From NCBI GenBank assembly GCA_018303125.1, contig JAGVYS010000002.1, positions 6,600 through 70,599 of the forward strand: a stretch of 64,000 nucleotides of DNA, in the 5' to 3' direction. Shown here in pieces: positions 9,008 through 64,000 of this stretch. Numbering within the stretch: the stretch's first letter is position 1; the number at the start of each line of letters is the position of its first letter. The translations under genes were made by a program, and so were the position numbers. The DNA is from Candidatus Woesearchaeota archaeon. GTDB taxonomy: Archaea > Nanobdellota > Nanobdellia > Woesearchaeales > WJIZ01. The notes under the pieces were generated by a model. It had not been told where the DNA came from and made no database searches. It worked only from the letters and a program-made list of their open reading frames with translations.

Positions 9008-9008
9008 T

Positions 9009-33306: not shown

Positions 33307-33335
33307 TTTCTGTATTCTCCCCTATAAGGCTGATA

Positions 33336-33376
33336 AAACAAATAAAAAAGAAAAAGGAGCTGCACGCGGGCAGTGC
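33336..33376 (-). terminator. short GC hairpin (GCAC-n7-GUGC) directly after the stop of the 33377..34657 gene, followed by an oligo-T tract on the coding strand
   Basis: Plus strand shows gctgcacgcgggcagtgc preceded by an A-run (33336-33356), i.e. hairpin followed by TTTTTCTTTTTTATTTGTTTT on the minus strand. Confidence 0.35.
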
Positions 33377-41161: not shown

Positions 41162-41728
41162 ATGATAAAAATGGAAAAAATAGAAAAAATGATTGATGAG
41201 AGCATTGAAGCAAAAAGGCACCTGTACAATGAATCCGGCAGTATAAAAAAGGCTGTAGAGGCCATAAAGCACTGCTTCAGGAGCGGCAACAAAGTGCTCA
41301 TTTTTGGAAACGGCGGCTCTGCTGCTGACTCTCAGCACATGGCAGCTGAATTTGTGGGCAGATACAAAAAGGAGAGGAAAGGCCTCCCTGCCATAGCTCT
41401 TACCACAGATAGCTCCATATTGACAGCATGGTCAAATGATTACACCTATGAGACTATATTCGAAAGGCAAGTTGAAAGCTTGGCCAAAAAAGGAGACGTA
41501 CTTATCGGCCTTTCAACATCTGGAAACTCAAAAAACGTAATAAAAGCGATGGAAAAAGGAAAGGAGTTGGGAACAATAAACATATCACTCACAGGAAAAA
41601 AAGGAGGAAAGTTAAAAGAGACCAGCGACATTAATATAAATGTAGAATCGGATAATACGCCCAGAATACAGGAATGTCATCTTCTGGCTTACCATATAAT
41701 TTGCGAACTTGTGGAGGAAGACCTATGA
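41162..41728 (+). CDS. gmhA: D-sedoheptulose 7-phosphate isomerase (SIS domain)
   Basis: SIS-domain motifs KVLIFGNGGSAADSQH, IGLSTSGNS, EC...LLAYHI characteristic of GmhA. Confidence 0.85.
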   Translation: MIKMEKIEKMIDESIEAKRHLYNESGSIKKAVEAIKHCFRSGNKVLIFGNGGSAADSQHMAAEFVGRYKKERKGLPAIALTTDSSILTAWSNDYTYETIFERQVESLAKKGDVLIGLSTSGNSKNVIKAMEKGKELGTINISLTGKKGGKLKETSDININVESDNTPRIQECHLLAYHIICELVEEDL

Positions 41729-42609: not shown

Positions 42610-43577
42610 AGGATTTCAAAAAATGCCTGGAAGATTTCAGGAATAAGAAGATAGTAATACTTGGCGACCTGATGCTTGACAAGTATATATTCGGGAAAGT
42701 AGACAGGATATCACCTGAGGCACCAGTCCCAATAGTTAGAGTAGAGAGTGAAAAATATGTGCCAGGAGGCGCAGCAAATGCTGCTGCCAACGTATCCGCA
42801 CTTGGAGGGGAAGCCCATCTGTTCGGGATAGTAGGCAATGATTCTGCAAAGGACATATTTATGGATGTGGCAAAATCAAGTTTCATCAAAACAGATGGGG
42901 TGATAATTGACAAAAAGAAGCCGACCATACAAAAAATAAGGGTGCTTGGACCTATTCAACAGTTGCTCAGGATTGACTATGAGGATGTAGACTATATCAG
43001 CAAGGATATCCATGAGGCCATTTTAAGAAAGATAATGGTTTTAAGAAACGTTGACGCTATTATAATATCAGACTATGCGAAGGGAACAATAACAAAGGAT
43101 CTATTGGGAAAAGTAATCGCATATGCAAAGGAAAGGAATATTCCTGTAATAATAGACCCAAAGCCGAAACATGCAGAGTTGTACGTGGGGGCTACAATCA
43201 TAACACCCAACAAAAAAGAGGCAGAAGAAATAGTAAAGCACAGTATAGACACCATGGAAGATGTTGAAAAAGCAGGAAAGAGCATTTCTGAGAAGTTTGA
43301 TTGCTCTGTTTTGCTGACGTTAGGAGAGAAAGGAGTTGCCTTATTCGAAAAGGGAAAAAATGCAGTGCATATACCAGCAATAGCAAGGGAAGTTTTTGAC
43401 GTTTCAGGGGCAGGAGACACAGTTATAGCTACACTAAGCCTTGCGTTATCTTCAGGAGCATCATTGAGTGATGCTTCTATAATCGCAAACCATGCTGCCG
43501 GAATAAAGGTAGGAAAGATCGGGACAGCGCCAGTTTATCTTAACGAGCTTTCAAGAAGCTTAGAGAAATCATTATGA
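42606..43577 (+). CDS. hldE: D-beta-D-heptose 7-phosphate kinase (stand-alone HldE domain I, pfkB family)
   Basis: ILGDLMLDKYIFGKVDRISPEAPVPIV, PGGAANAAANVSALG, DVSGAGDTVIATLSLAL match the HldE N-terminal kinase domain. Confidence 0.85.
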   Translation: MKDFKKCLEDFRNKKIVILGDLMLDKYIFGKVDRISPEAPVPIVRVESEKYVPGGAANAAANVSALGGEAHLFGIVGNDSAKDIFMDVAKSSFIKTDGVIIDKKKPTIQKIRVLGPIQQLLRIDYEDVDYISKDIHEAILRKIMVLRNVDAIIISDYAKGTITKDLLGKVIAYAKERNIPVIIDPKPKHAELYVGATIITPNKKEAEEIVKHSIDTMEDVEKAGKSISEKFDCSVLLTLGEKGVALFEKGKNAVHIPAIAREVFDVSGAGDTVIATLSLALSSGASLSDASIIANHAAGIKVGKIGTAPVYLNELSRSLEKSL

Positions 43578-44566
43578 TGCCAAAAGCAATATTTCTTGAC
43601 AGGGATGGCACACTGGTTTTTGACCCTGGATATGTCCACAGGATAGAGGATTTCAAGCTCCAGGAAAACACTGACAAAGCGCTGAAAAAGATAAAAGGCT
43701 ATTTGCTTTTTATAGTGACAAATCAGTCAGGAATAGGCAGGGGCATATTCAGTGAAGAGGATATGCACAAGTTCAACAAATTGCTTATAGAAACATTAGC
43801 AAAAAGCGGAGTGTCAATAGAAAAAATATATTTCTGCCCACATAAACCTGAAGACAACTGCAAGTGCAGGAAGCCGGAAACAATGATGATTAAAGAAGCG
43901 ACAAAAGATTACAGCATAGACATTAAAGATTCTTATATGATAGGAGACGATGTGTGTGACATTGAACTCTCATCTAGGGTAGGCTGTAAAGGCATACTCG
44001 TACTAACTGGTTTTGGAAAGAAAAGCTTGAAGGAAGCAAGGATGTTCTCCCCTCATTATATATCTGCAAATCTTGAGCAGGCGTGTGACTTCATAATGTT
44101 GCAGAAGCCAGATAAGATTATAGCTAGGAAAGACATTCCGTCAATTGTCAGAAAAATAAGGGGAGAAGGCAAGAAAATAGCAACTCTAAACGGGACATTT
44201 GACATATTGCACAAAGGACATTCAAAAATAATAAATGAGGCAAGGAAAACTGCTGATGCGCTTATTGTTGGCATCAACTCTGACAGCTCTGTTAAGGGAA
44301 ACAAGGGAAAAGAAAGGCCGTTCAACAGCGATACAAAAAGAGCGCTGATGCTTTCAGTGTTCAAGGATATTGATTATGTGACGATTTTCGATGAAAAGAC
44401 ACCCATTGAAATGCTTGAAATTATAAAGCCTGATGTTCATGTCAATGGCTCTGAGTATGGCGAGGAATGCATAGAAGCAGAAACTGTAAGAAAAAACGGC
44501 GGGAGGATATGCATAGTAAAGCTTGTGCCGGGCTTTTCAACCACAGATCTTGTCAAGGAGCGATAA
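43574..44566 (+). CDS. gmhB: bifunctional D,D-heptose 1,7-bisphosphate phosphatase (GmhB, HAD) / D-beta-D-heptose 1-phosphate adenylyltransferase (HldE domain II) fusion
   Basis: N-terminus AIFLDRDGTLV...VTNQSGIGRG...CPHKPEDNCKCRKP (GmhB, including the Cys-x-Cys zinc site); C-terminus ATLNGTFDILHKGH...NSDSSVKGNKG (cytidylyltransferase-like HldE-II). Confidence 0.85.
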   Translation: MMPKAIFLDRDGTLVFDPGYVHRIEDFKLQENTDKALKKIKGYLLFIVTNQSGIGRGIFSEEDMHKFNKLLIETLAKSGVSIEKIYFCPHKPEDNCKCRKPETMMIKEATKDYSIDIKDSYMIGDDVCDIELSSRVGCKGILVLTGFGKKSLKEARMFSPHYISANLEQACDFIMLQKPDKIIARKDIPSIVRKIRGEGKKIATLNGTFDILHKGHSKIINEARKTADALIVGINSDSSVKGNKGKERPFNSDTKRALMLSVFKDIDYVTIFDEKTPIEMLEIIKPDVHVNGSEYGEECIEAETVRKNGGRICIVKLVPGFSTTDLVKER

Positions 44567-49325: not shown

Positions 49326-50360
49326 ATGACTAAGGAGATTCTTATAATTAAAGTTGGGGCATTGGGAGATGTCCTCCGTACTACTTTCCTCCCTCCATTG
49401 CTGAAAAGAAAGTATCAGGAATGTAAAATTAGCTGGGTGACAAGCATAAAGGCAGTAGAGCTCCTAAAAAATAATCCGCATATAGACGAAATATATGCCA
49501 TAGAAGGTAAAGCAAAGATAAATGGAAGATTTGACATTATTCTCTGCCTGGATGATGAGCATGAATCTGCTGAGCTGGCAACCCGTTTAAGTGGCGGTAA
49601 AATAATAGGATCATATGCAGATGGAAATAAAGTTAGGTATACTAATAGCTCAGCGCCTTGGTTCGGCATGGGCCTGCTAAGGCCTGAAGAAGAAGGTGGT
49701 CTTGAAAGAGCAAATGAATTCAAGAAAATGAACAGTAAAAGCTATTTCCAATTGATAGCCAATATAGTAAACATACAATATAACGGAGAAAAGCCAAATC
49801 TATTTCTTACAGAGGCTGAGATAGCATATGGAAAAGAGTTTGCAAAGAGGTACGGAATATCAAAAAATGATTTTGTTGTTGGTGTGAACACAGGTGCAGG
49901 AAAAAGATGGCAAAGCAAGCAATGGAGTGTGGAAAAGACAGTAGACACTATAGACATTCTTGCTGGAAAGCTCGGCTTCAAGGTCATTCTTTTTGGAGGC
50001 GAAGATGAGGAAGGTAGAAACAATAGTATAAAGGCCAGATGCAAAAGCAAAATAATTGACTCTGGAACAAAGAACAGCCTGAGGGGGTTTGCTTCAATAA
50101 TAAGCATATGCTCTCTTGTCATATGCTCTGACACTCTTGCTTTGCATATAGCAACATCCCTTGACAAGAAAGTTATAGCGCTTATTGGACCTACAAGTGC
50201 AAGCGAGATATATCTGTTTGGAAAAGGAATAAAAATATGCCCTGAAATGGAATGCGAATGCTTTTATAAGAGCAAATGTACCGCAAAAAAATGCTGCATG
50301 GATACAATAATCCCGGAAAAGGTTTCTTTGGCTGCGAAGGAGCTCCATGAAAAATCATAA
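49326..50360 (+). CDS. GT9-family glycosyltransferase (heptosyltransferase-like)
   Basis: ILIIKVGALGDVLRTTFLPPLL N-terminal signature and C-terminal SDTLALHIATSL...ALIGPTS block. Confidence 0.75.
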   Translation: MTKEILIIKVGALGDVLRTTFLPPLLKRKYQECKISWVTSIKAVELLKNNPHIDEIYAIEGKAKINGRFDIILCLDDEHESAELATRLSGGKIIGSYADGNKVRYTNSSAPWFGMGLLRPEEEGGLERANEFKKMNSKSYFQLIANIVNIQYNGEKPNLFLTEAEIAYGKEFAKRYGISKNDFVVGVNTGAGKRWQSKQWSVEKTVDTIDILAGKLGFKVILFGGEDEEGRNNSIKARCKSKIIDSGTKNSLRGFASIISICSLVICSDTLALHIATSLDKKVIALIGPTSASEIYLFGKGIKICPEMECECFYKSKCTAKKCCMDTIIPEKVSLAAKELHEKS

Positions 50361-51644: not shown

Positions 51645-52643
51645 ATGAAAATTCTCGTGATAAGGTCTGGAGCTGTCGGTGATGTCATAATGGCTACTCC
51701 ATTCCTTAGAAACCTCAGGGAAGCATACCCGAACTCAAGAATATCCTTTCTTGTTGGTAAATGGTCAAAGGAAGTACTCAGGAACAACAAAAATATTGAT
51801 GAAATAATATCTTTTGATGATAAAATAATAGCAAGGAAAAAGTTTCTTGAAGTATTGGCATTGTCACGCAAAATAAAGATAATGAATTTTGATAGGTGCT
51901 TCATTCTTGACAAGTCCTGGGCATGGAGCCTTTTTGCTTTCATTTGCGGCATAAGGAAAAGGATAGGATTTTCTAGGGGAACAGAAGCTTCATTCAACAC
52001 CATATCAATAAATTTTGATGGAAAAAAACAAGAGTCAGAGTATAACAATGATCTGCTAAAAGTAGCAGGAATCAAAGCTAAGAACTACCAGCCAGAGATA
52101 TTTTCTACAGAAAAAGATATCGAATTCGCTGAAAAGCTCATAAAGGGCATAGGGAAAAAGAGCATAATTGGTATCGCTCCTGGAGGAGCTGTAAATCCTG
52201 GCCAGAGTGCAATCTTGAAAAGATGGCCTATTGATAGGTACAAGGAATTCGTAGGGAAGATAGGCGTGCCCTGCATACTTTTAGGTAATTCTAATGATAA
52301 AGTGGTATGTAAGGAGATAATGGCTAGCCATGAGACAGGAACATACGATGCAACTGGCATCTCAATACAGAAAGCAAAGGAGATAATGGAAAGATGCGCT
52401 GCCGTAATAACTCATGATTCTGGCGCAATGCATATTGCCTCTGCTACAAGCACAAAGATAATTGCTTTGTTCGGGCCTACCCCGGCAGAAAGGTTTGCGC
52501 CTAAAAATGCAGTAGTGATTAGGACAAAATCCTGGCCATGCTATACAATAAGGGGTAAGTTTGCAGGATGTGCAAAAAACCAAATGATGGAAATAAATGT
52601 TGAAAGTGTAATTTACGCCTTGAAGAAGGCTTTATCGAAATAA
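51645..52643 (+). CDS. GT9-family glycosyltransferase (heptosyltransferase-like)
   Basis: MKILVIRSGAVGDVIMATPFLRNL and HDSGAMHIASATSTKIIALFGPT blocks. Confidence 0.75.
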   Translation: MKILVIRSGAVGDVIMATPFLRNLREAYPNSRISFLVGKWSKEVLRNNKNIDEIISFDDKIIARKKFLEVLALSRKIKIMNFDRCFILDKSWAWSLFAFICGIRKRIGFSRGTEASFNTISINFDGKKQESEYNNDLLKVAGIKAKNYQPEIFSTEKDIEFAEKLIKGIGKKSIIGIAPGGAVNPGQSAILKRWPIDRYKEFVGKIGVPCILLGNSNDKVVCKEIMASHETGTYDATGISIQKAKEIMERCAAVITHDSGAMHIASATSTKIIALFGPTPAERFAPKNAVVIRTKSWPCYTIRGKFAGCAKNQMMEINVESVIYALKKALSK

Positions 52644-52672: not shown

Positions 52673-53737
52673 ATGAAACTAGGACTATTGAGCCCATTCC
52701 CGCCAAAGAAATGCGGAGTAGGCATTTACTCTTATAACCTGTACAGGAATTTGAAGGATAAGGTAGATGTAATAAGGATAGGAGACAATGAATCAGATTC
52801 AGATTTCAAAATTAATTTCTGCTCATTTAAGCTGGGAGAGCAGCTCCAGAGGATAATTGAAAGCCAGGGCATCGATATAATTCATGTAGAATATAATGCA
52901 CCGCAGTTTGGGAGGTTAAGCCTTAATGCAGGCCTTATAAGTGCATTACGCAGCATAAAGATACCCAAAGTCATAACATTGCATGAGGTCCAGTATGACA
53001 GGAAATGTGGGTTCATTGAAAAAGCCAGGCTTGGCATACTAAGGCTGATAGAAAAGAAGCTAATAAGTTATTCTGACCGGGTAATAGTACATACTCCAAA
53101 TCAGGCAGAGTTTCTTAGGAAAAAGTACAGCACAAAAAAAGTAGAATGCATATACCATGGATTGGAATTAAAGGATATAATCAAAAAAAACACTAAAAAT
53201 CTGTTATTCCTTGGGATAATAACCCCTTCCAAAGGCGTCCATTATCTTATAGGGGCTATGTCTGGCTTAAGTGAATATAACTTGACAATTGCCGGAGACA
53301 CGCCAAAAGGCATGCAGGTTTACAAGAAAAAGCTATTGTCCCTAATTTCAGAAAAAGGGCTTAAGAATGTAAAAACGGACTTTAGATGGATACCTGAAAA
53401 CGATAAAGAGGAATATTTCAGAAGTGCTGGAATTGTAGTCCTGCCTTATACTTGGGCTCCTTATCAGTCAGGAGTATTGCATAGTGCTGTGTCCTATGGA
53501 ATTCCTGTTGTTGTCACAAATACTGGCTCATTGGGGGAGATAGCTAAGGAATTTTTGATTGGAGAAGTGATAAAGCCAGGCATCTCTGAAGAAATTTCAG
53601 AGGGAATAAAGGTAGTATCAAAAAATTACAGTAAATATTCTGCAGGCATCATGAAATACAGAAAGGTTGCAAATTGGGAAACTGTGAGCAATAAGCACGC
53701 TAAATTATATGCCTCACTTCTTAAGAACATCGCATAG
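52673..53737 (+). CDS. GT4-family glycosyltransferase (GT-B fold)
   Basis: C-terminal retaining-GT4 block (VLPYTWAPYQSGVLHSAVSYGIPVVVTNTGSLGEI). Confidence 0.7.
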   Translation: MKLGLLSPFPPKKCGVGIYSYNLYRNLKDKVDVIRIGDNESDSDFKINFCSFKLGEQLQRIIESQGIDIIHVEYNAPQFGRLSLNAGLISALRSIKIPKVITLHEVQYDRKCGFIEKARLGILRLIEKKLISYSDRVIVHTPNQAEFLRKKYSTKKVECIYHGLELKDIIKKNTKNLLFLGIITPSKGVHYLIGAMSGLSEYNLTIAGDTPKGMQVYKKKLLSLISEKGLKNVKTDFRWIPENDKEEYFRSAGIVVLPYTWAPYQSGVLHSAVSYGIPVVVTNTGSLGEIAKEFLIGEVIKPGISEEISEGIKVVSKNYSKYSAGIMKYRKVANWETVSNKHAKLYASLLKNIA

Positions 53738-54898
53738 TATTGAATAGAATCTTTTTGCTGTTGCCTCTATGCTGAAATTTTCAATTACGTATTTTCTGGA
53801 GTATTCCCCCATTTTAGAGCACAAGATCTTGTCATTCAGAAGAATCCTTATCCTATCTGCCAATGCCTCCGCATTCCCGGGATTGATTACAAATCCATTT
53901 TTCCCTTCCTCTATCAGGGTGGCAGGGCCGCCGCTAAATGTGGATATTACAGGAATGCCGCATGACATGGCTTCTATGACTGGATAGCCAAACTGTTCGC
54001 GCCAGTTTTCATTTGGTATTGACGGAAAAACAAAAAAAGAGGCTGTGTTATAGGCAATGGGTACTTGTTTATTCTCAAGGTCCTCCATCAACTTTACGTT
54101 ATTCCTTGCTGCTGAAAACTTTCTTACTTCCTCAACAATCTTTTGGTCATTAGCTTTCCCGAATCCGACAATAAGCAAACTAAATTCTTCACCCTTGGCT
54201 TCAAGTATTTCAACTGCCTTAAGAATTGTCAATATTCCCTTTACATCTATAAGCCTGCCAAGGAATAGGAATGTTTTCCCCTTTTTTCCTGAGAATCCAG
54301 ACAGGCCCTTATCCAATGGCTTGTAGAAACCAATGTCTATTCCTGCTTCAGGAAGCACATACATTTTCTCTTCAATAGCGCCTTTGCCCAGATATATCTT
54401 TTTTATCTCATCTGTGCCGGGTATGAGAAAATCGGCCTTCGAGATTGTGTATCTCTCCATCCAGTTGACAAAAAAAAGATGCTTGAATATCATGTTCTCC
54501 CAGCATTGGTAGCCCAATTTTGCTTTTGTTTTTCTGGAGATATTGGCAAGATGAAAGTTCTGTAGGGCAACTGGCTCACCAAAGCCATATATGACATCTG
54601 GATTTATTCTTCTTATAGTTTCCCTTAAGGACCTAAAAATAAACTTGAACTGTGCATATGGTTTTCTGAAATCAAAGTTTAAAGTTTCAGATTTATGTAC
54701 AATAAATTTTTCTGTGCTATACTTGTCAATGTCAGGAAAAGAATAGCCATTCCAATTATTGGGAGTGATTATATCCACCCTTAAGTCGTATTCAGTGCTA
54801 AGATGGGAAAGGAACTTGAAAAGCCTTCCTGCTGTAGGATAATTGAACGGGAAGCCGATGCAACATAGCCTTATTTGGCGAGGTAGTTTTTGTACCAT
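53714..54898 (-). CDS. GT4-family glycosyltransferase (GT-B fold)
   Basis: EX7E-type motif region EQFGYPVIEAMSCGIPVISTFSGGPATLIEEGKNGFVINPGN. Confidence 0.75.
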   Translation of the reverse strand: MVQKLPRQIRLCCIGFPFNYPTAGRLFKFLSHLSTEYDLRVDIITPNNWNGYSFPDIDKYSTEKFIVHKSETLNFDFRKPYAQFKFIFRSLRETIRRINPDVIYGFGEPVALQNFHLANISRKTKAKLGYQCWENMIFKHLFFVNWMERYTISKADFLIPGTDEIKKIYLGKGAIEEKMYVLPEAGIDIGFYKPLDKGLSGFSGKKGKTFLFLGRLIDVKGILTILKAVEILEAKGEEFSLLIVGFGKANDQKIVEEVRKFSAARNNVKLMEDLENKQVPIAYNTASFFVFPSIPNENWREQFGYPVIEAMSCGIPVISTFSGGPATLIEEGKNGFVINPGNAEALADRIRILLNDKILCSKMGEYSRKYVIENFSIEATAKRFYSILCDVLKK

Positions 54899-55845
54899 AG
54901 AAATGCCTTCTTAAGGCCATTCTCCAGTGTATATCTTGGCTTCCACCCAAGCATTCTCATTGCTTTCTCAGATGATAAGTATTGGTCCTTTATCTCTGTC
55001 TTGGCCTGATTAAGAATCTTCGGCTTAAGTCCTTTTCTCCCAGATATGTCTATTATTTTTTTCACCAAGTCTATTACTGATATTTGTGTGCCTGAACCAA
55101 AATTGAATGCCTCTCCATTTAATGAATTGCTCTCATTCTCGACCAAGGACATATAAGCATATACTGCATCCTCTACATAGAGGTAGTCCCTCTTGAATGT
55201 GCCGTCACTCCTTATTATTGGCTCCTCATTGTTGAGAACTGACTGGATAGTTCCAGGAATTATTCTGCTAAAGTTTAAATCACCGCCACCATACAGATTT
55301 CCGCATCTTACTACCCTGACAGGAAGATTATAGGTATGAAAGAATGCCTGGCTTATAAGGTCAGCGCATGACTTTGAAACCTCATAAGGTGCCATGCCTT
55401 GGAGAGGGAATGATTCAAGATATGGGAGTTTTTCATGTGTTCCATAAGCCTTATCGCTGGAAGCTACAATAATCCTTTTGATGGAGCCCAATCTTCTGCA
55501 TGCCTCTAGCACATTACATGTACCTATTATATTCGTATTCAGCGTGCCCAATGGAGACTTATTTGCTATACCTACTATTGATTGGGCCGCAAGATGAAAA
55601 ACAACCTCTATGCCATATTCATTTATGATTCTCTCCACAAGCGCGTAGTCCAGAACATCGCCCCTAATAAGGTTATAACTGCTTACCTCAAGCAATTTAA
55701 GGCTAGATTTATGGACTTCGTCCCGAAGAAGAAGCGTTAATTCAGAGCCATTCTCTATAAGGCTTTTTGCGAGCCATGGCCCAAGAAACCCTGCGCCTCC
55801 GGTAATGAATACCTTTCTGCCATGCCAAAAATTTTTTTCCGACAT
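54871..55845 (-). CDS. NDP-sugar 4,6-dehydratase of the extended SDR family, RfbG-like paralog (ORF-track start 55914; Met at 55845 preferred)
   Basis: MSEKNFWHGRKVFITGGAGFLGPWL parallels the RfbG N-terminus; YxxxK catalytic pair present (YEVSK). Confidence 0.65.
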   Translation of the reverse strand: MSEKNFWHGRKVFITGGAGFLGPWLAKSLIENGSELTLLLRDEVHKSSLKLLEVSSYNLIRGDVLDYALVERIINEYGIEVVFHLAAQSIVGIANKSPLGTLNTNIIGTCNVLEACRRLGSIKRIIVASSDKAYGTHEKLPYLESFPLQGMAPYEVSKSCADLISQAFFHTYNLPVRVVRCGNLYGGGDLNFSRIIPGTIQSVLNNEEPIIRSDGTFKRDYLYVEDAVYAYMSLVENESNSLNGEAFNFGSGTQISVIDLVKKIIDISGRKGLKPKILNQAKTEIKDQYLSSEKAMRMLGWKPRYTLENGLKKAFLWYKNYLAK

Positions 55846-55925
55846 AAATAACCTTTCAAGTCTCCTTAAAAAAGGATTAATCCTAAAATTTATAAAAGTT
55901 ACTGTACATTTCAAGCTTTATCAAT

Positions 55926-57065
55926 ATGAGAATTCTTCTATTGAATGACCAGGAGGAGAAAAGAGGAGGTGCAGAGGAGTACTTCTACAGCTTAAAATCT
56001 CTGATGGAAGATAATGGCCATGAAGTTCATGTGTATTTCTCAAGTAAGAACACAAAATTGAGCGTTTTTGGGAGCATTTTCAGCATAAAAAACCTCGTAA
56101 AAACTTTCAGGGCCATTAAGAAAGTAAATCCGGACATAATCCATATACACAAATACAATCTCTCGCTTTCTGCCTCACCTGCAATATCAGCAAAGTTGCT
56201 TGGAAAAAAGTTTGTTGTGACATTCCATGATTTTGGCCTGTTGTGCAGCAATGGCTGGTGTGTTGACAAAAATGGGAAGGCATGTGACAATCCGACATGG
56301 ATAAAATGGGTCTTCAGTAAAAGCTTAAGCAGGAAGGGCTTTTTTAGGAAAGCATATGACTATGTAAAGAACAAAGTGCACCTAAAAATGTTCCAAATTA
56401 CATCAGATGGGTACTTTGGTCCATCAAAGGAGATGTCAAAGTATTTGCTCGATATATTTGACAAGAAAAAAGTGCATCATGTGCCCTATTTCATACCAGG
56501 CAAATGGAAATTCATGAAAAAGAGGGAAATAAGCAATAAACTGCTCTACGTTGGAAGACTTGAGAGAGAGAAAGGAGTTGATAGGCTTATAGATGCCATG
56601 TGCTTGCTTCCTGAAAAGACAGCACTCGACATTGTAGGGGATGGAAAAGAAAAAAATGCCCTTATGGAACAGGCAAAGCATATCCGCAACAAGGTGACAT
56701 TTGCAGGCAGCATCCCGAGAGAAAACATAGAAAAGTATTATCATGACTCAGATATGCTCATAATGCCTTCTTTATGGATGGAACAATTCGGGATAGTGGG
56801 AATAGAGGCTATGGCGTCTGGAACTCCTGTTATTGCAGCAAAAATAGGTGGGACTGGTGACTGGCTGAAAGACTGTTGGAATGGCATCTCTTTGGAAAGT
56901 ATTAGGCCGGAAGAATTGGCAAAGGCTATACGCAAAATGCAAAGCACCAAATTATTGTCTAAATACGGACTAAACGGAAGGAGAACATATGAAAAAGGGT
57001 TTACTGAAAAAGTCCATTATAAGTACATACTGGATGCATATAGAAATGTGCTTAAGAATGATTGA
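55926..57065 (+). CDS. GT4-family glycosyltransferase (GT-B fold)
   Basis: EQFGIVGIEAMASGTPVIAAKIGGTGDWL EX7E motif. Confidence 0.75.
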   Translation: MRILLLNDQEEKRGGAEEYFYSLKSLMEDNGHEVHVYFSSKNTKLSVFGSIFSIKNLVKTFRAIKKVNPDIIHIHKYNLSLSASPAISAKLLGKKFVVTFHDFGLLCSNGWCVDKNGKACDNPTWIKWVFSKSLSRKGFFRKAYDYVKNKVHLKMFQITSDGYFGPSKEMSKYLLDIFDKKKVHHVPYFIPGKWKFMKKREISNKLLYVGRLEREKGVDRLIDAMCLLPEKTALDIVGDGKEKNALMEQAKHIRNKVTFAGSIPRENIEKYYHDSDMLIMPSLWMEQFGIVGIEAMASGTPVIAAKIGGTGDWLKDCWNGISLESIRPEELAKAIRKMQSTKLLSKYGLNGRRTYEKGFTEKVHYKYILDAYRNVLKND

Positions 57066-57168
57066 TTTTTATTCATATGATTCATTGCAGATTGCTCCGC
57101 AATAAAACATTCTAAGAAAGTATAAGGAAATATTTATATATCGCCGAAGAGGACGAAACATCTGTTTC

Positions 57169-57954
57169 ATGGGAAAATACAAAGTCGTCATTTTATGCGG
57201 TGGAATGGGAACTAGGCTAAGGGAAGAGACAGAATTCAGGCCAAAGCCCATGGTCGAGATAAATGAAAAGCCAATTTTGTGGCACATCATGAAACATTAT
57301 GCATATCATGGCTATAACGATTTTATACTATGTTCGGGCTATAAAGGCGAGATGATAAAAGAATACTTCCTTAACTACAAATGGAAAAGCAATAATTTTA
57401 CGCTCCACATGAAAACCGGAGAACTGGATAGGAAAAACCACAAGAACGACATAGAAGATTGGCACATTACATTTGTTGATACTGGCAAGGAAACTCCCAC
57501 AGGAGGAAGGATAAAGAAAATAGAGAAGTACATAAATGAGGATAATTTCCTTGCGACTTACGGTGATGGTGTTTCAGACGTAGACATAAAAAAAGTAGTG
57601 AAGTTCCATCAGGATAACGGAAAAATAGCTACAATAACAGGATTGCACCCATGGTCGAAATATGGAACTGTGCATATAGACAGTAACAGTCATGTTGTGA
57701 GATTCGTTGAGAAGCCTGTCCTGAAAGACCTAATTAATGGTGGATTTTTCGTTTTTAAGAAGGATATTTTTAAGTATTTAGATGAGGATAGCCTACTAGA
57801 GAAGGAGCCATTCGAAAATCTTGCCAAGGATGGCGAAATAGCCCTATACAGGCATGATGGATTCTGGCATTGCATGGACACTTATAAAGACGTTCTTGAC
57901 CTTAACAAGATGTGTGAAGGAAAGGACCCCCCATGGAAAGTCTGGAAAGAATAA
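57169..57954 (+). CDS. rfbF: glucose-1-phosphate cytidylyltransferase
   Basis: MGKYKVVILCGGMGTRLREETEFRPKPMVEINEKPILWHIMKHY is near-identical in pattern to RfbF/DdhA. Confidence 0.85.
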   Translation: MGKYKVVILCGGMGTRLREETEFRPKPMVEINEKPILWHIMKHYAYHGYNDFILCSGYKGEMIKEYFLNYKWKSNNFTLHMKTGELDRKNHKNDIEDWHITFVDTGKETPTGGRIKKIEKYINEDNFLATYGDGVSDVDIKKVVKFHQDNGKIATITGLHPWSKYGTVHIDSNSHVVRFVEKPVLKDLINGGFFVFKKDIFKYLDEDSLLEKEPFENLAKDGEIALYRHDGFWHCMDTYKDVLDLNKMCEGKDPPWKVWKE

Positions 57955-57981
57955 GGCTATGCTGGCTGAGATGTTGGATAG

Positions 57982-59028
57982 ATGAAATTTGATAATTTTT
58001 TTAGCGGAAAAAAAGTATTGATAACAGGACATACAGGCTTCAAAGGCTCATGGTTGACGATATGGCTTCTGGAGATGGGTGCAAAGGTAATAGGATACAG
58101 TCTTGACCCCTACAAAAATGGGGTGTTTGACAAAGCTAACCTGAAAGAAAAAATAGTGGATATTAGGGCAGATATAAGGGATTTCTCGAAACTTGAAAAT
58201 GTATTTGTTGAGCATAAGCCAGACATAGTGATACATATGGCTGCACAGGCCATAACAAGGCATTCTTATGATGAGCCAAGAGAGACATTTGAAACTAACA
58301 TAATGGGAAGCGTTAATATCCTTGAATGCATAAGAATGCATCCTGTAAAATCTGCTGTGATTATAACAAGCGACAAATGCTACAAGAATAAGGAGATAAA
58401 AAACGGCTACATTGAATCTGATGAAATGAGTGACAAAGATCCTTACAGTTGCAGCAAAGGCTGCACAGAGCTTATTGTCGGGTCATATAGGAACTCATTT
58501 GGTATAAAAATTCCATCAGCAAGAGCAGGCAATGTAATTGGCGGAGGGGATTGGGGAATGGACAGGCTTGTGCCTGACATAGTAAGGTCATTGAAAAACA
58601 ATGAAGAGATTGCTATAAGGAACCCTGACTCCGTAAGGCCGTGGCAGTTTGTTCTTGAGCCATTATCAGGCTACCTGCTTTTGGCGAAAATGCAGTATAA
58701 TGGTAAAAGTGTAAGCGAAGGATGGAATTTTGGCCCTGAACATGATTCAATGGTGTCTGTGAAGGAGCTTGCAAGGATGATTATAAAGGAGTGGAGATAT
58801 GGAAAGATAAAATATTATCATGATGCATCCAAAAAAAAGGAAGCCGGATTGCTTTATCTCAACTGTGGCAAATCCAAAAAAAATCTAGGATGGAAACCTA
58901 GCGTGGATATTGCCAAGACTGTTTCATGGATTGTTGAATGGTACAAAAACTATGAAAAAAAGGATGCGTATGCGTTGTGTGTGAAGCAGATTAAGGAATA
59001 TGAAAAATCTGGAACAGGTAAAGATTAG
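57982..59028 (+). CDS. rfbG: CDP-glucose 4,6-dehydratase
   Basis: FFSGKKVLITGHTGFKGSWLTIWL N-terminus and SDR YxxxK (YSCSK) match RfbG/DdhB. Confidence 0.85.
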   Translation: MKFDNFFSGKKVLITGHTGFKGSWLTIWLLEMGAKVIGYSLDPYKNGVFDKANLKEKIVDIRADIRDFSKLENVFVEHKPDIVIHMAAQAITRHSYDEPRETFETNIMGSVNILECIRMHPVKSAVIITSDKCYKNKEIKNGYIESDEMSDKDPYSCSKGCTELIVGSYRNSFGIKIPSARAGNVIGGGDWGMDRLVPDIVRSLKNNEEIAIRNPDSVRPWQFVLEPLSGYLLLAKMQYNGKSVSEGWNFGPEHDSMVSVKELARMIIKEWRYGKIKYYHDASKKKEAGLLYLNCGKSKKNLGWKPSVDIAKTVSWIVEWYKNYEKKDAYALCVKQIKEYEKSGTGKD

Positions 59029-59029
59029 C

Positions 59030-59944
59030 ATGAAAACTGTGCTTGTTACAGGTGGACTTGGTTATTTAGGAAGTAAGGTATGTGAAAGATTGAAGAAAGA
59101 GGGTTATGAAGTCAGGATATTCTGCCATCGCACAAGGAATGCAGGGCTTGATGGGTTTAAGCATTTCTATGGGGATGTTCTTGAAATGGATTCTATATTA
59201 AAAGCGAGCAGAAATTGCGAATTTATAGTCCATTGTGCAGCATTGAATGAGGTAGAGTGCAGGAAAAATCCGAATAGGGCTCTTGAGATTAATGCTATTG
59301 GCACAAGGAATATGCTAGAAGCAGCATTAAGGATGGGCGTAAGAAGGTTTATCTATATCTCAACATTTCACGTTTATGGCAAGGCAAATGGCAGGATAGA
59401 TGAAAAAACATTGCCAGAGCCAAGAGATGATTACAGCATAAGCCATTATGCTGCCGAGCAATATTGTAGGCAATACAACGGACTTGGACTTGAATGTGTG
59501 ATTTTAAGGGTATCAAATGCTTACGGAGCACCGGTGAACAAAAACATCAAAAGATGGACGCTGCTTATTAACAACCTATGCATGCAGTGTGTAAACAACA
59601 ATTCAATTATTCTGAAGTCGCCAGGATGTCAAAAACGGGATTTTATCTCATTATCCGATATATCTAGTGGAGTATCTTTAGTTATGAAGAAGCCTAAGAA
59701 TGCACTTTCCGGCAGGGTCTATAACCTCGGAGGAGAAAACGCGCTCAGCCTTGTTGAAGTGGCCAAAGAAGTAGCGAGCACATATAGCCAAATGCACGGA
59801 AAGCCTATCAAGGTTGAATCACCACATAAAGGAAAGTCTGAAAAACTTTTTTTCGACATATCAATGATAAAAAAGATTGGCTACCGCCCGAAATCTAATT
59901 TTAGGGAAGAAATAAGGAAAACTTTGGAGGCTTGCTCTGAATAA
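59030..59944 (+). CDS. NAD(P)-dependent sugar epimerase/reductase of the extended SDR family (RfbJ/RfbS/CDP-tyvelose epimerase-like; ORF-track start 59000)
   Basis: MKTVLVTGGLGYLGS Rossmann motif and YxxxK (YAAEQ..., SHYAAEQYCRQY); start immediately after the rfbG stop. Confidence 0.7.
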   Translation: MKTVLVTGGLGYLGSKVCERLKKEGYEVRIFCHRTRNAGLDGFKHFYGDVLEMDSILKASRNCEFIVHCAALNEVECRKNPNRALEINAIGTRNMLEAALRMGVRRFIYISTFHVYGKANGRIDEKTLPEPRDDYSISHYAAEQYCRQYNGLGLECVILRVSNAYGAPVNKNIKRWTLLINNLCMQCVNNNSIILKSPGCQKRDFISLSDISSGVSLVMKKPKNALSGRVYNLGGENALSLVEVAKEVASTYSQMHGKPIKVESPHKGKSEKLFFDISMIKKIGYRPKSNFREEIRKTLEACSE

Positions 59945-59945
59945 G

Positions 59946-60713
59946 ATGAAACTAATGCTATTCATTCCGGCATACAAAACAGAGCATGCAATAATCTCTG
60001 TCCTTGAGAGGATTCCTGAAAACATAAGGAAAAAGGCAGCAGAGATAGTTGTAATGGACAACAGCAGCCCTGACAATCTCTTTGACAGGGTCATGGAGTA
60101 CAAAAAGAAGAAGAAAATGGCCAAGCTCAAGATATATAGGCACAGTAAAAACCTCCTATACGGCGGCAATGAAAAAGCAGGATGCGAATATGCTGTAAAG
60201 CATGGAATGGACATTGTTGTTGTTGTGCATTCTGATGGCCAGTATCCTCCAGAGCACATTGCCCAGCTTATCATGCCAATAGAGGAAGAAAAAGCAGACA
60301 CTGTCTTCGGCTCGAGGATATCTGGGAGAGGCGCACTCCGTGGTGGTATGCCTATTTGGAGGTTTTCAGGCAACATATTGCTTACTTTTGTGGAGAATTT
60401 AATAACTGGGACAAGATTCTCCGAATGGCATTCTGGCTTCAGGGCATACAGCTGCAAGGCTTTGAGAGTTCTTCCGTTCAAGGAATGCGTATCTGGGTAT
60501 GAGTGGACAACAGACATTTACCTTCTTTTCCTTGCAAACCGGTTCAGGATTGCAGAAATTCCAATCCCTACCCATTATGGTAAGGAATCTACAAGCCCTT
60601 CAATTAAAACTACTTTCCTCTACTTCTGCACATCAACTGCACTTGCGCTGAACTACCTGTTGACAAGGTTTAGGATAAGGAATATACACAAATATAGGCC
60701 AGTCAGGAAATGA
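59946..60713 (+). CDS. GT2 glycosyltransferase
   Basis: MLFIPAYKTEHAI, VVMDNSSPDN, VVVVHSDGQYPPE GT-A motifs. Confidence 0.75.
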   Translation: MKLMLFIPAYKTEHAIISVLERIPENIRKKAAEIVVMDNSSPDNLFDRVMEYKKKKKMAKLKIYRHSKNLLYGGNEKAGCEYAVKHGMDIVVVVHSDGQYPPEHIAQLIMPIEEEKADTVFGSRISGRGALRGGMPIWRFSGNILLTFVENLITGTRFSEWHSGFRAYSCKALRVLPFKECVSGYEWTTDIYLLFLANRFRIAEIPIPTHYGKESTSPSIKTTFLYFCTSTALALNYLLTRFRIRNIHKYRPVRK

Positions 60714-60715
60714 TT

Positions 60716-62527
60716 TTATTGCAATTTGTAGAATACGACCTTTTCTGTGCTGTAGATTACAGTAGAATTATCGAATACTCCATTAAAAAGGCTCTTTGCC
60801 TTTTCTGAGTAAACATAGTCTGATTTTACGCCTTCAATTATATGTGAGACATTTAGAGCTAAAATTGCTTTCCTGAGAGAATCTGGGCTGTCGAATGACT
60901 CGATATCAAGGTAAAGCTGGGTTGGTTTCGCAGATATTACAGGGTAATCTAAATAGTAGTATACTGGCTTGTTATATAGAAGAATTGTTGATATGTTAAC
61001 GACTTTGCTGTTGATGTATTTAAATTCATGAAAAGTATGGTCTGTGCTTATTTTATTAAAAAAATCATCTTCAGACTCAAGCAAGAGTCCTGGCTTAACT
61101 AGTTTCCCGTTAACGCCTGCCCAAAGCACAGAAGCAAAAACAAGGTAAGTAATCATAAGAACGGAGATTATACTCTTTGATTTCATTTCCATAATCCTAT
61201 CCAATGCAAAGCCTGCTGCCAAAGATAGGAATGGAAGAAGAAATATAGTTAGCCTCAGCTGTTGGGTATAGGTAAACCATAGCATGAATGACAATAATGT
61301 AAACACAAGGGAATAATTTAACGCTTTGTTCCGCCTGAAGAACAGGGCTATCGGAACCAGTGCCAGGAAGAAAGGGCCATAACCCAGGGTTTCTCCGAAC
61401 TTTTGTGCCATAAAGGTAAAATAAATAGGAGCCATCATAAATCCTGATATAGAATGGTCTCCCATGCCATAATTATAGAGCTTTAAAAAAATTTCATTGT
61501 ATATCTCAATGCTGAAATACTCCCCGCCGAATATATTGTAAAGTGCTGGATAAACTGGATTGCCTGTCCAGACATAATTCCTAATAAGCCAAGGAGACAT
61601 TACAGCAGCCATCACAATTCCGAATGTCATGCCTGAAAAAAATATCTTGCGGATAGAAAGTTTCCTTTCATAAAAAGAGTATCTATAAACAATGCCAAGG
61701 AACAGTATAAACATGGGAACTGCTCCATTTATCTTCACGCTACCGGCTGTGCCGGCAAAAATTCCTGCGATTAAAAGCCATGATAATTTCTGATTATCAA
61801 ACCACATGAAAAAGCTATAGCATGCTAGGAAAACAAATAATGCCAGGCTTATGTCAACAAGCGCTGCCGGAGTAAACTGCATTACTATGGGCACTGCGTA
61901 AAAAATAATAGCTGGAAAAATAGCTGATTTGGCTGATATGTGCCTGCTAAAGAAGGAGTATATTGCCAAGACGAGAAGCACTCCGATAAACCAGGAAAAA
62001 ATCTGGGATAATATACCATTTTTAAGGATATGCCCGAAAAGGAAAAGCATTTCTGTGAAAAGTGGAAAATTGTCAGTGAACATATAAGGTATGTCATCAA
62101 TGCCGTGATTCATTATGTAGGTCTTGGGTATTGACAGATGGTATGCAAGAGTATCTATCTCCCATGGAGGAGCCAAGGAAGCTATTAGGTTCATAACGAT
62201 AAGCAAGGCCAATGCAAGATGAAGAATAGAATTAAGGTCATGCCCGATTCTAAGCCTTGTAACTTTCTTTAAAAGCTCATTGATAAACTTGGTTATTCTC
62301 CCTGAAAAAATGACTAGGCCGACAACAACCATTGTGAAGAAAATCCACCTGTAAAGCAAATGCATGAATCCTAGAAAAAGTGTGGTATAGGAAATGCAAA
62401 AAAGTCCCATTGCCGTAAAGAACACATATCTCTCAAGATCGAAGCCAAATTCCACTTTCTTAAGCAAGAAAGACCCAAGGCCATATGCAAAAAGTGCGAT
62501 AGGGATGAAATATAGTATCTCTATCAT
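60716..62527 (-). CDS. polytopic membrane protein, putative GT-C-fold glycosyltransferase (ORF extends to 62734; Met at 62527 preferred)
   Basis: >12 TM helices; first periplasmic loop with acidic/aromatic motif (APPWEIDTLAYH); C-terminal soluble domain; the N-terminal 69 codons of the ORF are non-hydrophobic and probably untranslated. Confidence 0.4.
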   Translation of the reverse strand: MIEILYFIPIALFAYGLGSFLLKKVEFGFDLERYVFFTAMGLFCISYTTLFLGFMHLLYRWIFFTMVVVGLVIFSGRITKFINELLKKVTRLRIGHDLNSILHLALALLIVMNLIASLAPPWEIDTLAYHLSIPKTYIMNHGIDDIPYMFTDNFPLFTEMLFLFGHILKNGILSQIFSWFIGVLLVLAIYSFFSRHISAKSAIFPAIIFYAVPIVMQFTPAALVDISLALFVFLACYSFFMWFDNQKLSWLLIAGIFAGTAGSVKINGAVPMFILFLGIVYRYSFYERKLSIRKIFFSGMTFGIVMAAVMSPWLIRNYVWTGNPVYPALYNIFGGEYFSIEIYNEIFLKLYNYGMGDHSISGFMMAPIYFTFMAQKFGETLGYGPFFLALVPIALFFRRNKALNYSLVFTLLSFMLWFTYTQQLRLTIFLLPFLSLAAGFALDRIMEMKSKSIISVLMITYLVFASVLWAGVNGKLVKPGLLLESEDDFFNKISTDHTFHEFKYINSKVVNISTILLYNKPVYYYLDYPVISAKPTQLYLDIESFDSPDSLRKAILALNVSHIIEGVKSDYVYSEKAKSLFNGVFDNSTVIYSTEKVVFYKLQ

Positions 62528-62663
62528 TTTATGGCCCCTATGGAAAGTGCGAGTGTGTATGTGGTGGCAAGATAGTAAATAATGAAAATAGATATCGCCC
62601 AAATGATAAACATAGCTTCCTTTCTCATATTGAGCATACAAAGAGGTGATGTTAATAAAAAAC

Positions 62664-62674
62664 TTTTTATAGGC
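62664..62674 (+). promoter_or_regulatory. TATA-box-like element (CTTTTTATAGG) ~25 nt upstream of the cupin gene start, preceded by an A-rich BRE-like stretch
   Basis: Read from sequence; spacing consistent with an archaeal promoter driving a leaderless or short-leader transcript. Confidence 0.35.
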
Positions 62675-62693
62675 TCCTATAACTAGAATTAGT

Positions 62694-63152
62694 ATGAACG
62701 GCAATATTGATGGGGTTGTAGTGACACCACTCAAAAGAATCCCTGATGAGAGGGGAGCAGTCTATCATATGCTCAGAAAAGACGATTCTGTGTTTAAGCA
62801 GTTCGGTGAGGTATATTTCTCGATTGTCCATCCAGGTGCAATAAAAGCATGGCATATGCACAAGCTGATGACGCTGAACTATGCAGTTGTGGCAGGAAAG
62901 ATAAAGATGGTATTGTATGATGGAAGGAAAGACTCTAAAACTAAGGAAAACATAATGGAGATTTTTTTGGGAAAGGACAACTATTGCCTCGTTACAGTGC
63001 CTCCGGGGATTGTGAACGGTTTTAAGGGCCTGGGAAAGGAAGATTCAATTGTTGTAAACTGCGCCACACATCCACATGACCCCAATGAGATAAAAAGGAT
63101 TGACCCGTTTACGAAGGACATACCATATAACTGGGATATCAGGCATGGGTAG
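62694..63152 (+). CDS. cupin-fold NDP-4-keto-6-deoxyhexose 3,5-epimerase / ketoisomerase-like protein (RmlC/FdtA family)
   Basis: 152 aa with RmlC-like beta-barrel features (His dyad HMHK, FSIVHPGAIKAWH); sits inside the CDP-deoxysugar module. Confidence 0.5.
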   Translation: MNGNIDGVVVTPLKRIPDERGAVYHMLRKDDSVFKQFGEVYFSIVHPGAIKAWHMHKLMTLNYAVVAGKIKMVLYDGRKDSKTKENIMEIFLGKDNYCLVTVPPGIVNGFKGLGKEDSIVVNCATHPHDPNEIKRIDPFTKDIPYNWDIRHG

Positions 63153-63179
63153 GTATAGGTATTCAAACTTCTCATTCAT

Positions 63180-64000
63180 ATGAAAGATGAAATAATTAAA
63201 AAGATAATAGAGCTTGTTTCTGAGTACTATAAGGCATATCTTGCTGAGAGCAAATTCATAGCTGGTGAATCAAGGATTGACCCATCCGGAAAAATGTTCG
63301 ATGAAGAAGAATTGAAAAATGGAGTCATGGCTGTTCTTGACGGTTGGTGGACAGAAGGCAGATTCTCAGCAGAGTTCCAGGCAGAATTCAGTAAATATCT
63401 TGGAGTAAAGCATACTATACTGACAAATTCTGGTTCATCCGCGAACTTGCTTGCTTTTCATGCCCTGACATCAAAGCAGCTTGGAGAAAGAAGGATAGTT
63501 CCTGGAGATGAGGTTATAGCTGTCGCGTCATGTTTCCCAACAACAGTAAATCCCATTGTGCAATACGGCTGCATGCCTGTATTTCTTGATATAATGGACA
63601 TAAATTCTGGGCAGTACAACATAGACTGTACTCTTTTGGAGAATGCTATAACAAAAAAGACAAAAGCAATATTCCTTGCGCACACGCTTGGCAATCCATT
63701 CGATATAGGTAAGATAACAGAAATCTGCAGGAAAAATAAACTATGGCTCATAGAGGATTGCTGTGATTCTTTAGGCTCAACGTATAATGGCAAAAAAGTA
63801 GGCACTTTTGGCGATTTGGCGACATTCAGTTTCTATCCGGCACACCATATAACAATGGGAGAAGGTGGCGCTATTGTGACTAACAGCCATTTGCTCAAAA
63901 AGCTCGTAACATCATTCAGAAACTGGGGAAGGGACTGCTGGTGTGACCCTGGCAAGGACAACACATGCGGCATGAGATTCGGATGGGAGCTTGGAAAATT
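63180..64000 (+). CDS. rfbH: CDP-6-deoxy-D-xylo-4-hexulose 3-dehydrase (E1; DegT/DnrJ/EryC1 family), 5' partial running off the window
   Basis: Open frame from ATG 63180 to window end (not in the ORF track because no stop); blocks [80 protein letters not shown] colinear with Salmonella/Yersinia RfbH. Confidence 0.85.

Follow-up and report, generated by a model that had tools for sequence, protein, structure and literature searches.

The window analysed here is a 64,000-nucleotide (nt) stretch of contig JAGVYS010000002.1 (positions 6,600 to 70,599, forward strand) from the Candidatus Woesearchaeota archaeon assembly GCA_018303125.1. From position 57,169 to its end it carries the rfbF, rfbG and rfbH genes, which belong to the synthesis of cytidine diphosphate (CDP)-linked 3,6-dideoxyhexoses, together with genes for a short-chain dehydrogenase/reductase (SDR), a cupin and two glycosyltransferases (GTs). 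On balance we think it probable, judging from the sequence, that these genes form a functional nucleotide-sugar module for a 3,6-dideoxyhexose within a surface-glycan island of about 45 kb in this DPANN (Woesearchaeota) archaeon. The genes are:

57169–57954, forward strand: rfbF/ddhA, glucose-1-phosphate cytidylyltransferase, 261 amino acids (aa); TIGR02623; GenBank MBS3135503.1
57982–59028, forward strand: rfbG/ddhB, CDP-glucose 4,6-dehydratase, 348 aa; TIGR02622
59000–59944, forward strand: extended SDR, 314 aa, overlapping the rfbG stop by 29 nt; PF01370, 157 bits
59946–60713, forward strand: GT2 glycosyltransferase, polyprenyl/dolichyl-phosphate sugar synthase-like, 255 aa; PF00535, 63 bits
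60716–62527, reverse strand: GT-C fold membrane glycosyltransferase, PMT_2/ArnT-like, 603 aa as called; PF13231, 38.5 bits, and PF02366, 26 bits
62694–63152, forward strand: small RmlC-like cupin, 152 aa, 27 nt upstream of rfbH; PF00908, 46.8 bits (cut-off 27)
63180–64000 (window edge), forward strand: rfbH/ddhC, E1-type pyridoxamine 5'-phosphate/[2Fe-2S] CDP-4-keto-6-deoxyglucose 3-dehydrase; NF011936; GenBank MBS3135509.1

The open reading frame (ORF) map and family scans placed rfbF, rfbG, the SDR, the cupin and rfbH where the original prediction, made from the letters alone, had put them, with an ATG at 63,180 as the start of rfbH. The two genes that it had left unspecified between the SDR and the cupin are the GT2 gene on the forward strand and the GT-C/PMT_2 gene on the reverse strand. 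The genes are laid out as two tight co-directional groups on the forward strand with the single reverse-strand gene between them; the spacings are 27, −29 and 1 nt in rfbF–rfbG–SDR–GT2, and 27 and 23 nt in cupin–rfbH–wzx, where wzx, a Wzx-type flippase gene, starts just past the rfbH stop. The names rfbF, rfbG and rfbH had already been assigned by the GenBank pipeline (MBS3135503–MBS3135509). The pathway itself is known and does not amount to a new kind of system; the novelty lies in its archaeal host.

RfbF matched TIGR02623 at 311.7 bits over residues 5–259 of 261 (cut-off 300.25, E = 3.6e-93), was matched over its full length (residues 5–260) by the S. typhi structure 1TZF at 259 bits, and is 48% identical to DdhA of Yersinia vastinensis. 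RfbG scored 442 bits against TIGR02622 (cut-off 278, E = 1.5e-132) and aligned over its full length with two solved enzymes of S. typhi and Y. pseudotuberculosis, 1WVG (333 bits) and 1RKX (328 bits); it is 44% identical to Yersinia DdhB. Its translation contains a TGHTGFKGS Rossmann motif, TSDKCY and YSCSK, and the S/T-Y-K catalytic residues are present. The window holds the N-terminal 274 of the 439 residues of RfbH, and this fragment scored 426.7 bits against NF011936 (cut-off 423, E = 9e-128). E-values of this size leave no room for chance matches. The whole gene, which ends at window-equivalent position 64,499, was read from contigs 99.99–100% identical to the window (L001, L002 and L095); an exact-protein look-up with the cupin gave contigs of independent assemblies with this identity to window positions 52,694–64,000 that run on past the window. 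By curated cut-offs and by full-length alignment to characterised enzymes, RfbF, RfbG and RfbH are true members of their families.

The full-length RfbH aligned over residues 3–435 with the Yersinia E1 dehydrase (3BCX) at 541 bits; among other solved relatives, ColD reached 197 bits and true sugar aminotransferases at most 150 bits. The A-H222-H of RfbH aligned with A-H220-H of 3BCX and with the A-K-H of the H220K mutant, 3BB8. Residues C195, C253, C255 and C263 fall on the four E1 cysteines, reportedly C193, C251, C253 and C261 (Agnihotri et al. 2004). The [2Fe-2S] motif is thus C-x57-C-x-C-x7-C, reading C253-W-C255-x7-C263 with C195 upstream, and the "DCWC" cluster region pointed out in the original prediction is genuine, being C253-W-C255. 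In an alignment of 30 homologues, H222, C253, C255 and C263 were invariant and C195 was at least 90% conserved; the catalytic His and all four Cys are also intact in the RfbH homologues of Nanoarchaeota and Altiarchaeota. A His in place of Lys and an Fe–S cluster are the two features by which E1 and SpnQ can be told apart from ColD and the aminotransferases (PMC8987622). On this sequence evidence RfbH is an E1-type dehydrase. The possibility that the ORF starting at 63,180 encodes a generic DegT aminotransferase, which had been held open until the full-length protein could be read, was ruled out by the His/Cys signature, both parts of which are kept, and by the score of 541 against at most 150 bits. 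The retention of the His and the four Cys here and in the archaeal homologues argues for selection on reductive Fe–S chemistry.

E1 homologues formed more than 8000 clusters at 90% identity and are therefore common in metagenomes, contrary to the expectation that such sugars would be rare even in bacteria; the best 120 were all 56–66% identical to the RfbH of the window. Bacterial homologues were 51–57% identical to it and archaeal homologues 55–61%. In three proteins (P0015, 726 aa; P0019, 715 aa; P0034, 733 aa), an RfbH/E1 domain 60–63% identical to that of the window is naturally fused to an SDR (Epimerase/RmlD_sub_bind), an arrangement that would join 3-deoxygenation with reduction or epimerisation in one polypeptide. 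Another of the closest relatives (64% identity) lies on positions 1–11,320 of a 764-kb metagenomic contig (locus L006). There, rfbH is preceded by genes for a thiamine pyrophosphate (TPP)-dependent enzyme and a HAD hydrolase, and upstream are a methyltransferase gene and three radical-SAM genes, one of which encodes a B12-binding domain; neither rfbF nor rfbG is nearby. The dideoxy sugar made by this locus may be branched or C-methylated, somewhat like yersiniose.

The E3 reductase (DdhD/RfbI) had been predicted to lie possibly just beyond position 64,000. We searched for it with DdhD from a Yersinia vastinensis locus (L051), which has the gene order ddhD-ddhA-ddhB-ddhC followed by YerE/YerF-like genes, and with a profile of nine DdhD proteins. 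The sequence could be extended past the window by 9.15 kb on L001 and by about 19 kb on L095, to window-equivalent position ~83,040. No match to the profile was found, even at E ≤ 10, in the 64-kb window, in L001 and L095 or in an Altiarchaeota locus (L089), and the contig thus has no E3 gene beyond 64,000 up to ~83,040. A tblastn search of the window with Yersinia DdhD gave no match. Pfam and NCBIfam scans of window ORFs of at least 150 aa revealed no ferredoxin–NADP reductase (FNR)-like domains (Fer2, FAD-binding or NAD-binding), and no genes with such domains appeared in the Pfam lists of the downstream extensions. A regular-expression search of the window for plant-type 2Fe-2S, 4Fe-4S and FNR motifs had a single match, in a spurious antisense ORF. 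The only obvious redox protein near rfbH is one of 461 aa with two nitroreductase-family flavin domains, encoded about 10 kb past rfbH (L095 7296–8681; window-equivalent about 74.4–75.7 kb); no evidence ties it to E1.

For comparison, we examined, with 10-kb flanks, the best 80 rfbH loci from a scan of GTDB species genomes. All 80 are bacterial; they are a sample and no full count, and give no measure of archaeal frequency. An E3-like gene was present within 10 kb of rfbH in 13 of the 80 loci and absent from the other 67. The proportion was similar among loci with complete flanks (9 of 56) and among those with room upstream of rfbF (12 of 62). rfbF itself was adjacent in 66 of the 80, and in all 12 loci carrying both genes E3 was located immediately upstream of rfbF. 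Among the sampled loci, E3 was limited to proteobacterial and Bacteroidota subclades. In this sample, rfbF-rfbG-rfbH without E3 is the common state, and the pairing of E1 with E3 looks like a minority arrangement.

A precedent for E1 chemistry without a dedicated E3 is SpnQ, an E1 homologue with the same cluster that receives electrons from ferredoxin/ferredoxin reductase or flavodoxin/flavodoxin reductase pairs (PMC8987622). Like the archaeal RfbH, SpnQ (the TDP-4-keto-2,6-dideoxyglucose 3-dehydrase of Saccharopolyspora spinosa, to which other NDP-hexose 3-dehydrases of antibiotic pathways are related) has the [2Fe-2S] motif and His-for-Lys, with no dedicated E3 in its cluster (PMC8987622). 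It differs in acting on a dTDP-2,6-dideoxy substrate in secondary metabolism, whereas the archaeal RfbH is accompanied by CDP-glucose enzymes and passes the RfbH equivalog cut-off. Because 67 of the 80 bacterial loci also lack E3 and because SpnQ uses general reductases (PMC8987622), the missing E3 does not refute the pathway, and the absence of an E3-like gene, which the original prediction had treated as decisive, is not a valid criterion. Since E1-type dehydrases usually occur without E3, as in those 67 loci and in all three archaeal loci, surveys of pathway presence that require E3 will under-count dideoxy sugars, and general ferredoxin-type donors may be the normal electron source for these enzymes.

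An alternative is that, without E3, RfbH performs no reductive 3-deoxygenation and acts instead as a 4-aminotransferase or gives a non-reduced product, in which case the island would make a CDP-4-amino-4,6-dideoxyhexose or a CDP-6-deoxyhexose. We consider this unlikely. It would account for the lack of E3 from 63 kb upstream to 18.5 kb downstream, and SpnQ does act as an aminotransferase in the absence of a reductase when given pyridoxal 5'-phosphate and glutamate (PMC8987622); the cupin is also found in a locus with an ordinary DegT aminotransferase (L090). However, the active site of RfbH has a His, not the Lys that aminotransferases require. Under the SpnQ conditions, E1 and ColD had no transaminase activity, and transamination by E1 H220K was non-catalytic (PMC8987622). 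The conservation of four Cys across the archaeal homologues would also be hard to explain were the cluster unused, and most of the sampled bacterial loci lack E3 as well.

We then looked at how the module recurs elsewhere. A set comprising RfbF, a 4,6-dehydratase (RfbG or an RfbG-like SDR), the cupin, an SDR and RfbH, without E3, was found in a Nanoarchaeota metagenome-assembled genome (MAG; L004), in locus L008 and in an Altiarchaeota MAG (L089), and the same set of five occurs in some bacteria of the candidate phyla radiation (CPR), Chloroflexota and Omnitrophota. In a neighbour-joining tree, which is crude and without bootstrap, the three archaeal RfbH proteins grouped with two metagenomic contigs and one Patescibacteria sequence, separate from the proteobacterial clades linked to E3. 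Descent from an O-antigen cluster of the enterobacterial type is improbable; more likely, ultra-small archaea and bacteria living in the same habitats exchanged the module.

The closest described counterpart is the ascarylose module of Yersinia pseudotuberculosis O:5a (ddhD-ddhA-ddhB-ddhC-ascE-ascF; AscA-F), with which the first three enzymes are shared: the cytidylyltransferase is 48% identical, the dehydratase 44% and E1 55–57%, with the same His/Cys signature. Yersinia side-branch modules are arranged as sugar genes, then wzx, then GT, and ascE/ascF follow ddhC for ascarylose (PMC5399914); the archaeal order, sugar genes followed by wzx and GT, matches this, and in both modules epimerase and reductase steps would come after the first three enzymes. 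Unlike the O:5a module, the archaeal one lacks ddhD/E3, is split by the GT2 and GT-C genes and has an archaeal host. RfbF, RfbG and RfbH are likewise homologous to the products of the Salmonella enterica rfb cluster (ddhDABC plus abe/prt/tyv), with the S. typhi structures 1TZF and 1WVG as the best solved matches, but RfbI/DdhD is again missing from the archaeal module. The ColD/ColC pathway to GDP-colitose similarly starts from a nucleoside diphosphate (NDP)-4-keto-6-deoxyhexose, which is 3-deoxygenated, then epimerised and reduced, so that an L-3,6-dideoxyhexose results. ColD, however, has no Fe–S cluster and does without a reductase, with glutamate as the reductant, whereas the archaeal RfbH keeps the four Cys and scores 541 bits against E1 and 197 bits against ColD. 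The description of the module as of Salmonella/Yersinia O-antigen type therefore stands for RfbF, RfbG and RfbH and is otherwise overstated, given the lack of ddhD, the cupin and atypical SDR, and the grouping of RfbH with metagenomic and Patescibacteria sequences. The module would work in the manner of the asc/ddh pathways, but its lack of ddhD and its different tailoring genes place it outside the classical ddhDABC type.

Two tailoring candidates adjoin the core genes: the cupin and the SDR. The cupin scored 22.6 bits against the rmlC model TIGR01221 (cut-off 155.75), and its best PDB match was 3EJK (118 bits), an uncharacterised structural-genomics "dTDP sugar isomerase"; more distant matches included RmlC-like proteins of S. 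tokodaii and the cupin domain of Cap5F. Its family is strongly conserved and has more than 2500 members, the best 120 at 63–74% identity and including Nanoarchaeota and Altiarchaeota MAGs. The residues DERG, K51 and W53-H54-x-H56 are invariant. H54 aligns with the RmlC-like His of 2B9U, the Lys falls in a gap and the position of the Tyr is not evident. The gene lies beside rfbH in L004, L008 and L089, and near rfbH in five bacterial loci (L025, L038, L041, L069 and L077) from Dehalococcoidales, an unclassified "bacterium", Anaerolineae, Omnitrophota and Patescibacteria; among the loci compared it never occurred together with E3. It is most simply read as a candidate epimerase acting on the CDP-4-keto sugar. 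An FdtA-type 3,4-ketoisomerase, suggested by the H-x-H-K motif of the cupin, was considered and rejected: there was no PF05523 match at E ≤ 1e-3, and such an enzyme would have no substrate after 3-deoxygenation, an argument that holds unless the cupin acts before E1.

The SDR matched no NCBIfam equivalog. Its best NCBIfam match, GalE, reached 99.5 bits, below the cut-off, and no paratose synthase, abequose synthase or tyvelose epimerase was named among the best 25 of its 36 NCBIfam matches. The active site reads Y-S-I-S-H, in place of the YxxxK of the aligned SDRs from other loci. Among the 150 best representatives of the subfamily, the position of the catalytic Lys is occupied by His in 119 and by Lys in 19, with H-P-Y-A-I-T-H as a common motif, which suggests that these YxxxH proteins form an uncharacterised SDR subclass. 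The protein is not orthologous to the SDRs of related rfbH loci (at most 28% identity). Its position in the operon makes it a weakly supported candidate for the C4 ketoreductase.

Taken together, the likely product, by analogy with the characterised pathways, is a CDP-3,6-dideoxy-L-hexose destined for a surface glycan; the RmlC-like cupin points to an L-sugar and not to the D-configured abequose, paratose or tyvelose. As members of their families, RfbF would convert glucose-1-phosphate and CTP to CDP-D-glucose, RfbG would convert this to CDP-4-keto-6-deoxy-D-glucose, and RfbH would remove the 3-hydroxyl to give CDP-4-keto-3,6-dideoxy-D-glucose. For the last step, ferredoxin or another low-potential carrier of general use may supply the two electrons, as in SpnQ. 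The cupin would then epimerise the carbon beside the 4-keto group, which after 3-deoxygenation is C5, by analogy with ascE/ascF and with cupin-plus-SDR pairs such as Cap5F, and the SDR would reduce C4 to yield an L-configured CDP-3,6-dideoxyhexose, ascarylose-like or its C4 epimer. The sugar is presumably added to a cell-surface glycan, possibly through a dolichyl-phosphate intermediate made by the in-operon GT2; the Wzx-like protein would flip the intermediate and the GT-C enzyme would transfer the sugar outside the membrane.

Several observations weigh against this scheme. Neither the window nor its extensions contain a motif of a ferredoxin, a flavodoxin or an FNR, and the electron donor is taken from the analogy with SpnQ. 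No activity has been assigned to 3EJK, the closest structure in the uncharacterised cupin family, and the Lys and Tyr positions of RmlC are not obviously kept. The cupin also occurs with RfbF-like and dehydratase genes in loci that lack rfbH (L090 and L091); it is therefore presumably a general tailoring enzyme for NDP-4-keto-6-deoxyhexoses and not a partner specific to E1. In the in-operon SDR, the replacement of the catalytic Lys by His weakens the case for a 4-reductase role, and this SDR differs from the RmlD-like one found between the cupin and rfbH in other archaeal loci. Finally, we know of no precedent for the use of a CDP-sugar by a GT2 of the dolichyl-phosphate (Dol-P) sugar synthase type.

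The module could also feed into a sugar more complex than a plain 3,6-dideoxyhexose, be it an octose with a branched chain like yersiniose or some other derivative with further modifications. E1 homologues do adjoin TPP-dependent, YerE-like enzymes in the Yersinia vastinensis locus and in L006, the latter with HAD and radical-SAM genes, and the extension of this contig encodes a B12-binding radical-SAM enzyme about 16 kb downstream. With no TPP enzyme or methyltransferase in the two operons of the window, where only the cupin and the SDR adjoin the core genes as tailoring candidates, we regard such a product as decidedly improbable.

The start of the window carries the archaeal markers aIF2-alpha (PF07541), Nop10, PAC2 and Gins51, and GenBank assigns the 109,179-bp contig that holds MBS3135503–MBS3135509 to Candidatus Woesearchaeota archaeon. 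One independent assembly breaks at 26.3–27.1 kb, within an Ig-repeat ORF of 813 aa (26252–28693, reverse strand; repeated bacterial Ig-like domains, Big_13 and Big_3_3) that is a weak point of contiguity, and only the 109-kb contig spans both parts. This split leaves aIF2-alpha, Nop10, PAC2 and GINS on a different contig from the island and would allow the 109-kb contig to be chimeric or mis-binned, with a bacterial cluster and no archaeal dideoxyhexose pathway at all; the three pathway genes are about as near to bacterial as to archaeal homologues (for RfbH, 51–57% against 55–61%), and the GT9 and heptose genes of the island look bacterial. We nevertheless find this very improbable. The G+C content is even across the window (0.37–0.44), including the join at 26–27 kb, and the 75.5-kb contig that bears the rfb cluster also carries STT3 and S-layer-like genes. 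The best named relatives of the island genes are in other Woesearchaeota MAGs, the module together with heptose/GT9 genes recurs in separately assembled Nanoarchaeota and Altiarchaeota MAGs, and the RfbH proteins of the three archaeal MAGs cluster together in the distance tree. An archaeal origin is much the likelier, given the even G+C content, STT3 on the island contig, the Woesearchaeota relatives and two further archaeal MAGs with the module, in agreement with the host proposed at the outset, for which aIF2-alpha, PAC2, Gins51, Nop10, STT3 and the GenBank label all speak.

The literature searched held no paper on 3,6-dideoxyhexoses, rfbH or enzymes of CDP-glucose in archaea, which bears out the suggestion that these sugars are unreported in archaeal glycans. 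According to a 2020 survey of 303 complete archaeal genomes, most rare sugars are absent from Archaea, and Salmonella and Yersinia are the primary sources of tyvelose, paratose and abequose (PMC7725333). An active pathway would mean that an archaeal glycan contains a 3,6-dideoxyhexose for the first time, and a highly immunogenic class of bacterial "O-antigen" sugars would join the archaeal repertoire. A DPANN island built largely of bacterial-type modules also bears on the surface that these episymbionts show to their hosts and to phages. With an uncultured organism, genes that were already auto-annotated and no need for new enzyme chemistry, the practical impact is limited.

Among the NCBIfam models, the GT2 protein of the module weakly matched PpgS, AglJ, Dol-P hexose transferase and ArnC, and its sole PDB match was the Dol-P-Man synthase of P. 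furiosus (5MLZ, 34.7 bits); the GT-C protein had no sequence match in the PDB. Comparable lipid-phosphate-sugar pairs are ArnC/ArnT, GtrB/GtrC and AglD/AglS, and by speculative analogy the pairing of GT2 with GT-C might provide a lipid-phosphate-sugar route to an extracellular acceptor.

Downstream of rfbH, the first five genes encode the Wzx-type flippase, a TPR/GDSL protein, an MBOAT protein, a PMT-type GT-C and a membrane protein. These are followed by a GT2 annotated as polyprenol monophosphomannose synthase, a UDP-glucose dehydrogenase-like protein and the double nitroreductase-domain protein, and then by PMT_2, B12-binding radical-SAM, polysaccharide deacetylase, GT2, dehydrogenase and SDR genes, reaching window-equivalent position ~83,040.

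Upstream, two genes before rfbF, lies a second NDP-sugar 4,6-dehydratase-like SDR (54871–55845, reverse strand), with 201 bits against TIGR02622, below the cut-off, and 183 bits against the dTDP-glucose dehydratase model, which suggests that the island encodes another deoxy-sugar pathway besides this one. A segment at 41162–44566 on the forward strand contains ADP-heptose-like pathway genes, namely a GmhA-type SIS isomerase, an SDR epimerase and a PfkB kinase, together with a HAD phosphatase fused to a cytidylyltransferase-like domain. Three genes of the GT9 "heptosyltransferase" family are located at 39223–40320, 49326–50360 and 51645–52643. The heptose and GT9 genes amount to a toolkit of the bacterial lipopolysaccharide (LPS)-core type in an archaeon, and the same combination of SIS, HAD, PfkB and GT9 stands beside the rfbH module in the Altiarchaeota locus L089.

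A more far-reaching reading is that DPANN archaea and Altiarchaeota carry an LPS-like outer glycoconjugate, containing heptose (GmhA/HldE-like enzymes, GT9) and a 3,6-dideoxy-L-hexose made by an E3-independent, ferredoxin-run route, with machinery exchanged with CPR and other ultra-small bacteria. We offer this tentatively, as a possibility that is more doubtful than not. If true, 3,6-dideoxyhexoses would be widespread in uncultured prokaryotes of both domains and not mainly a feature of a few enterobacterial O antigens.

The window also encodes candidate acceptors for the glycans of the island. Two adjacent proteins (31273–34657, reverse strand) matched the "PACE-CTERM putative S-layer protein" model at 47 and 77 bits (both below the cut-off of 110), and a third protein (3747–6344, reverse strand) has an archaeal S_layer_C domain; these S-layer-like proteins are candidates for that role. 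An STT3 oligosaccharyltransferase gene (35071–38175) adjoins the S-layer-like genes.

Finally, the window carries genes for two isoprenoid enzymes. Archaea normally make isoprenoids by the mevalonate route. At this locus, an IspG/GcpE gene (15161–16372, forward strand; PF04551, 367 bits) and an IspH/LytB gene (16369–17286, reverse strand; PF02401, 306 bits) encode the last two enzymes of the bacterial-type methylerythritol phosphate (MEP) pathway on an archaeal contig.

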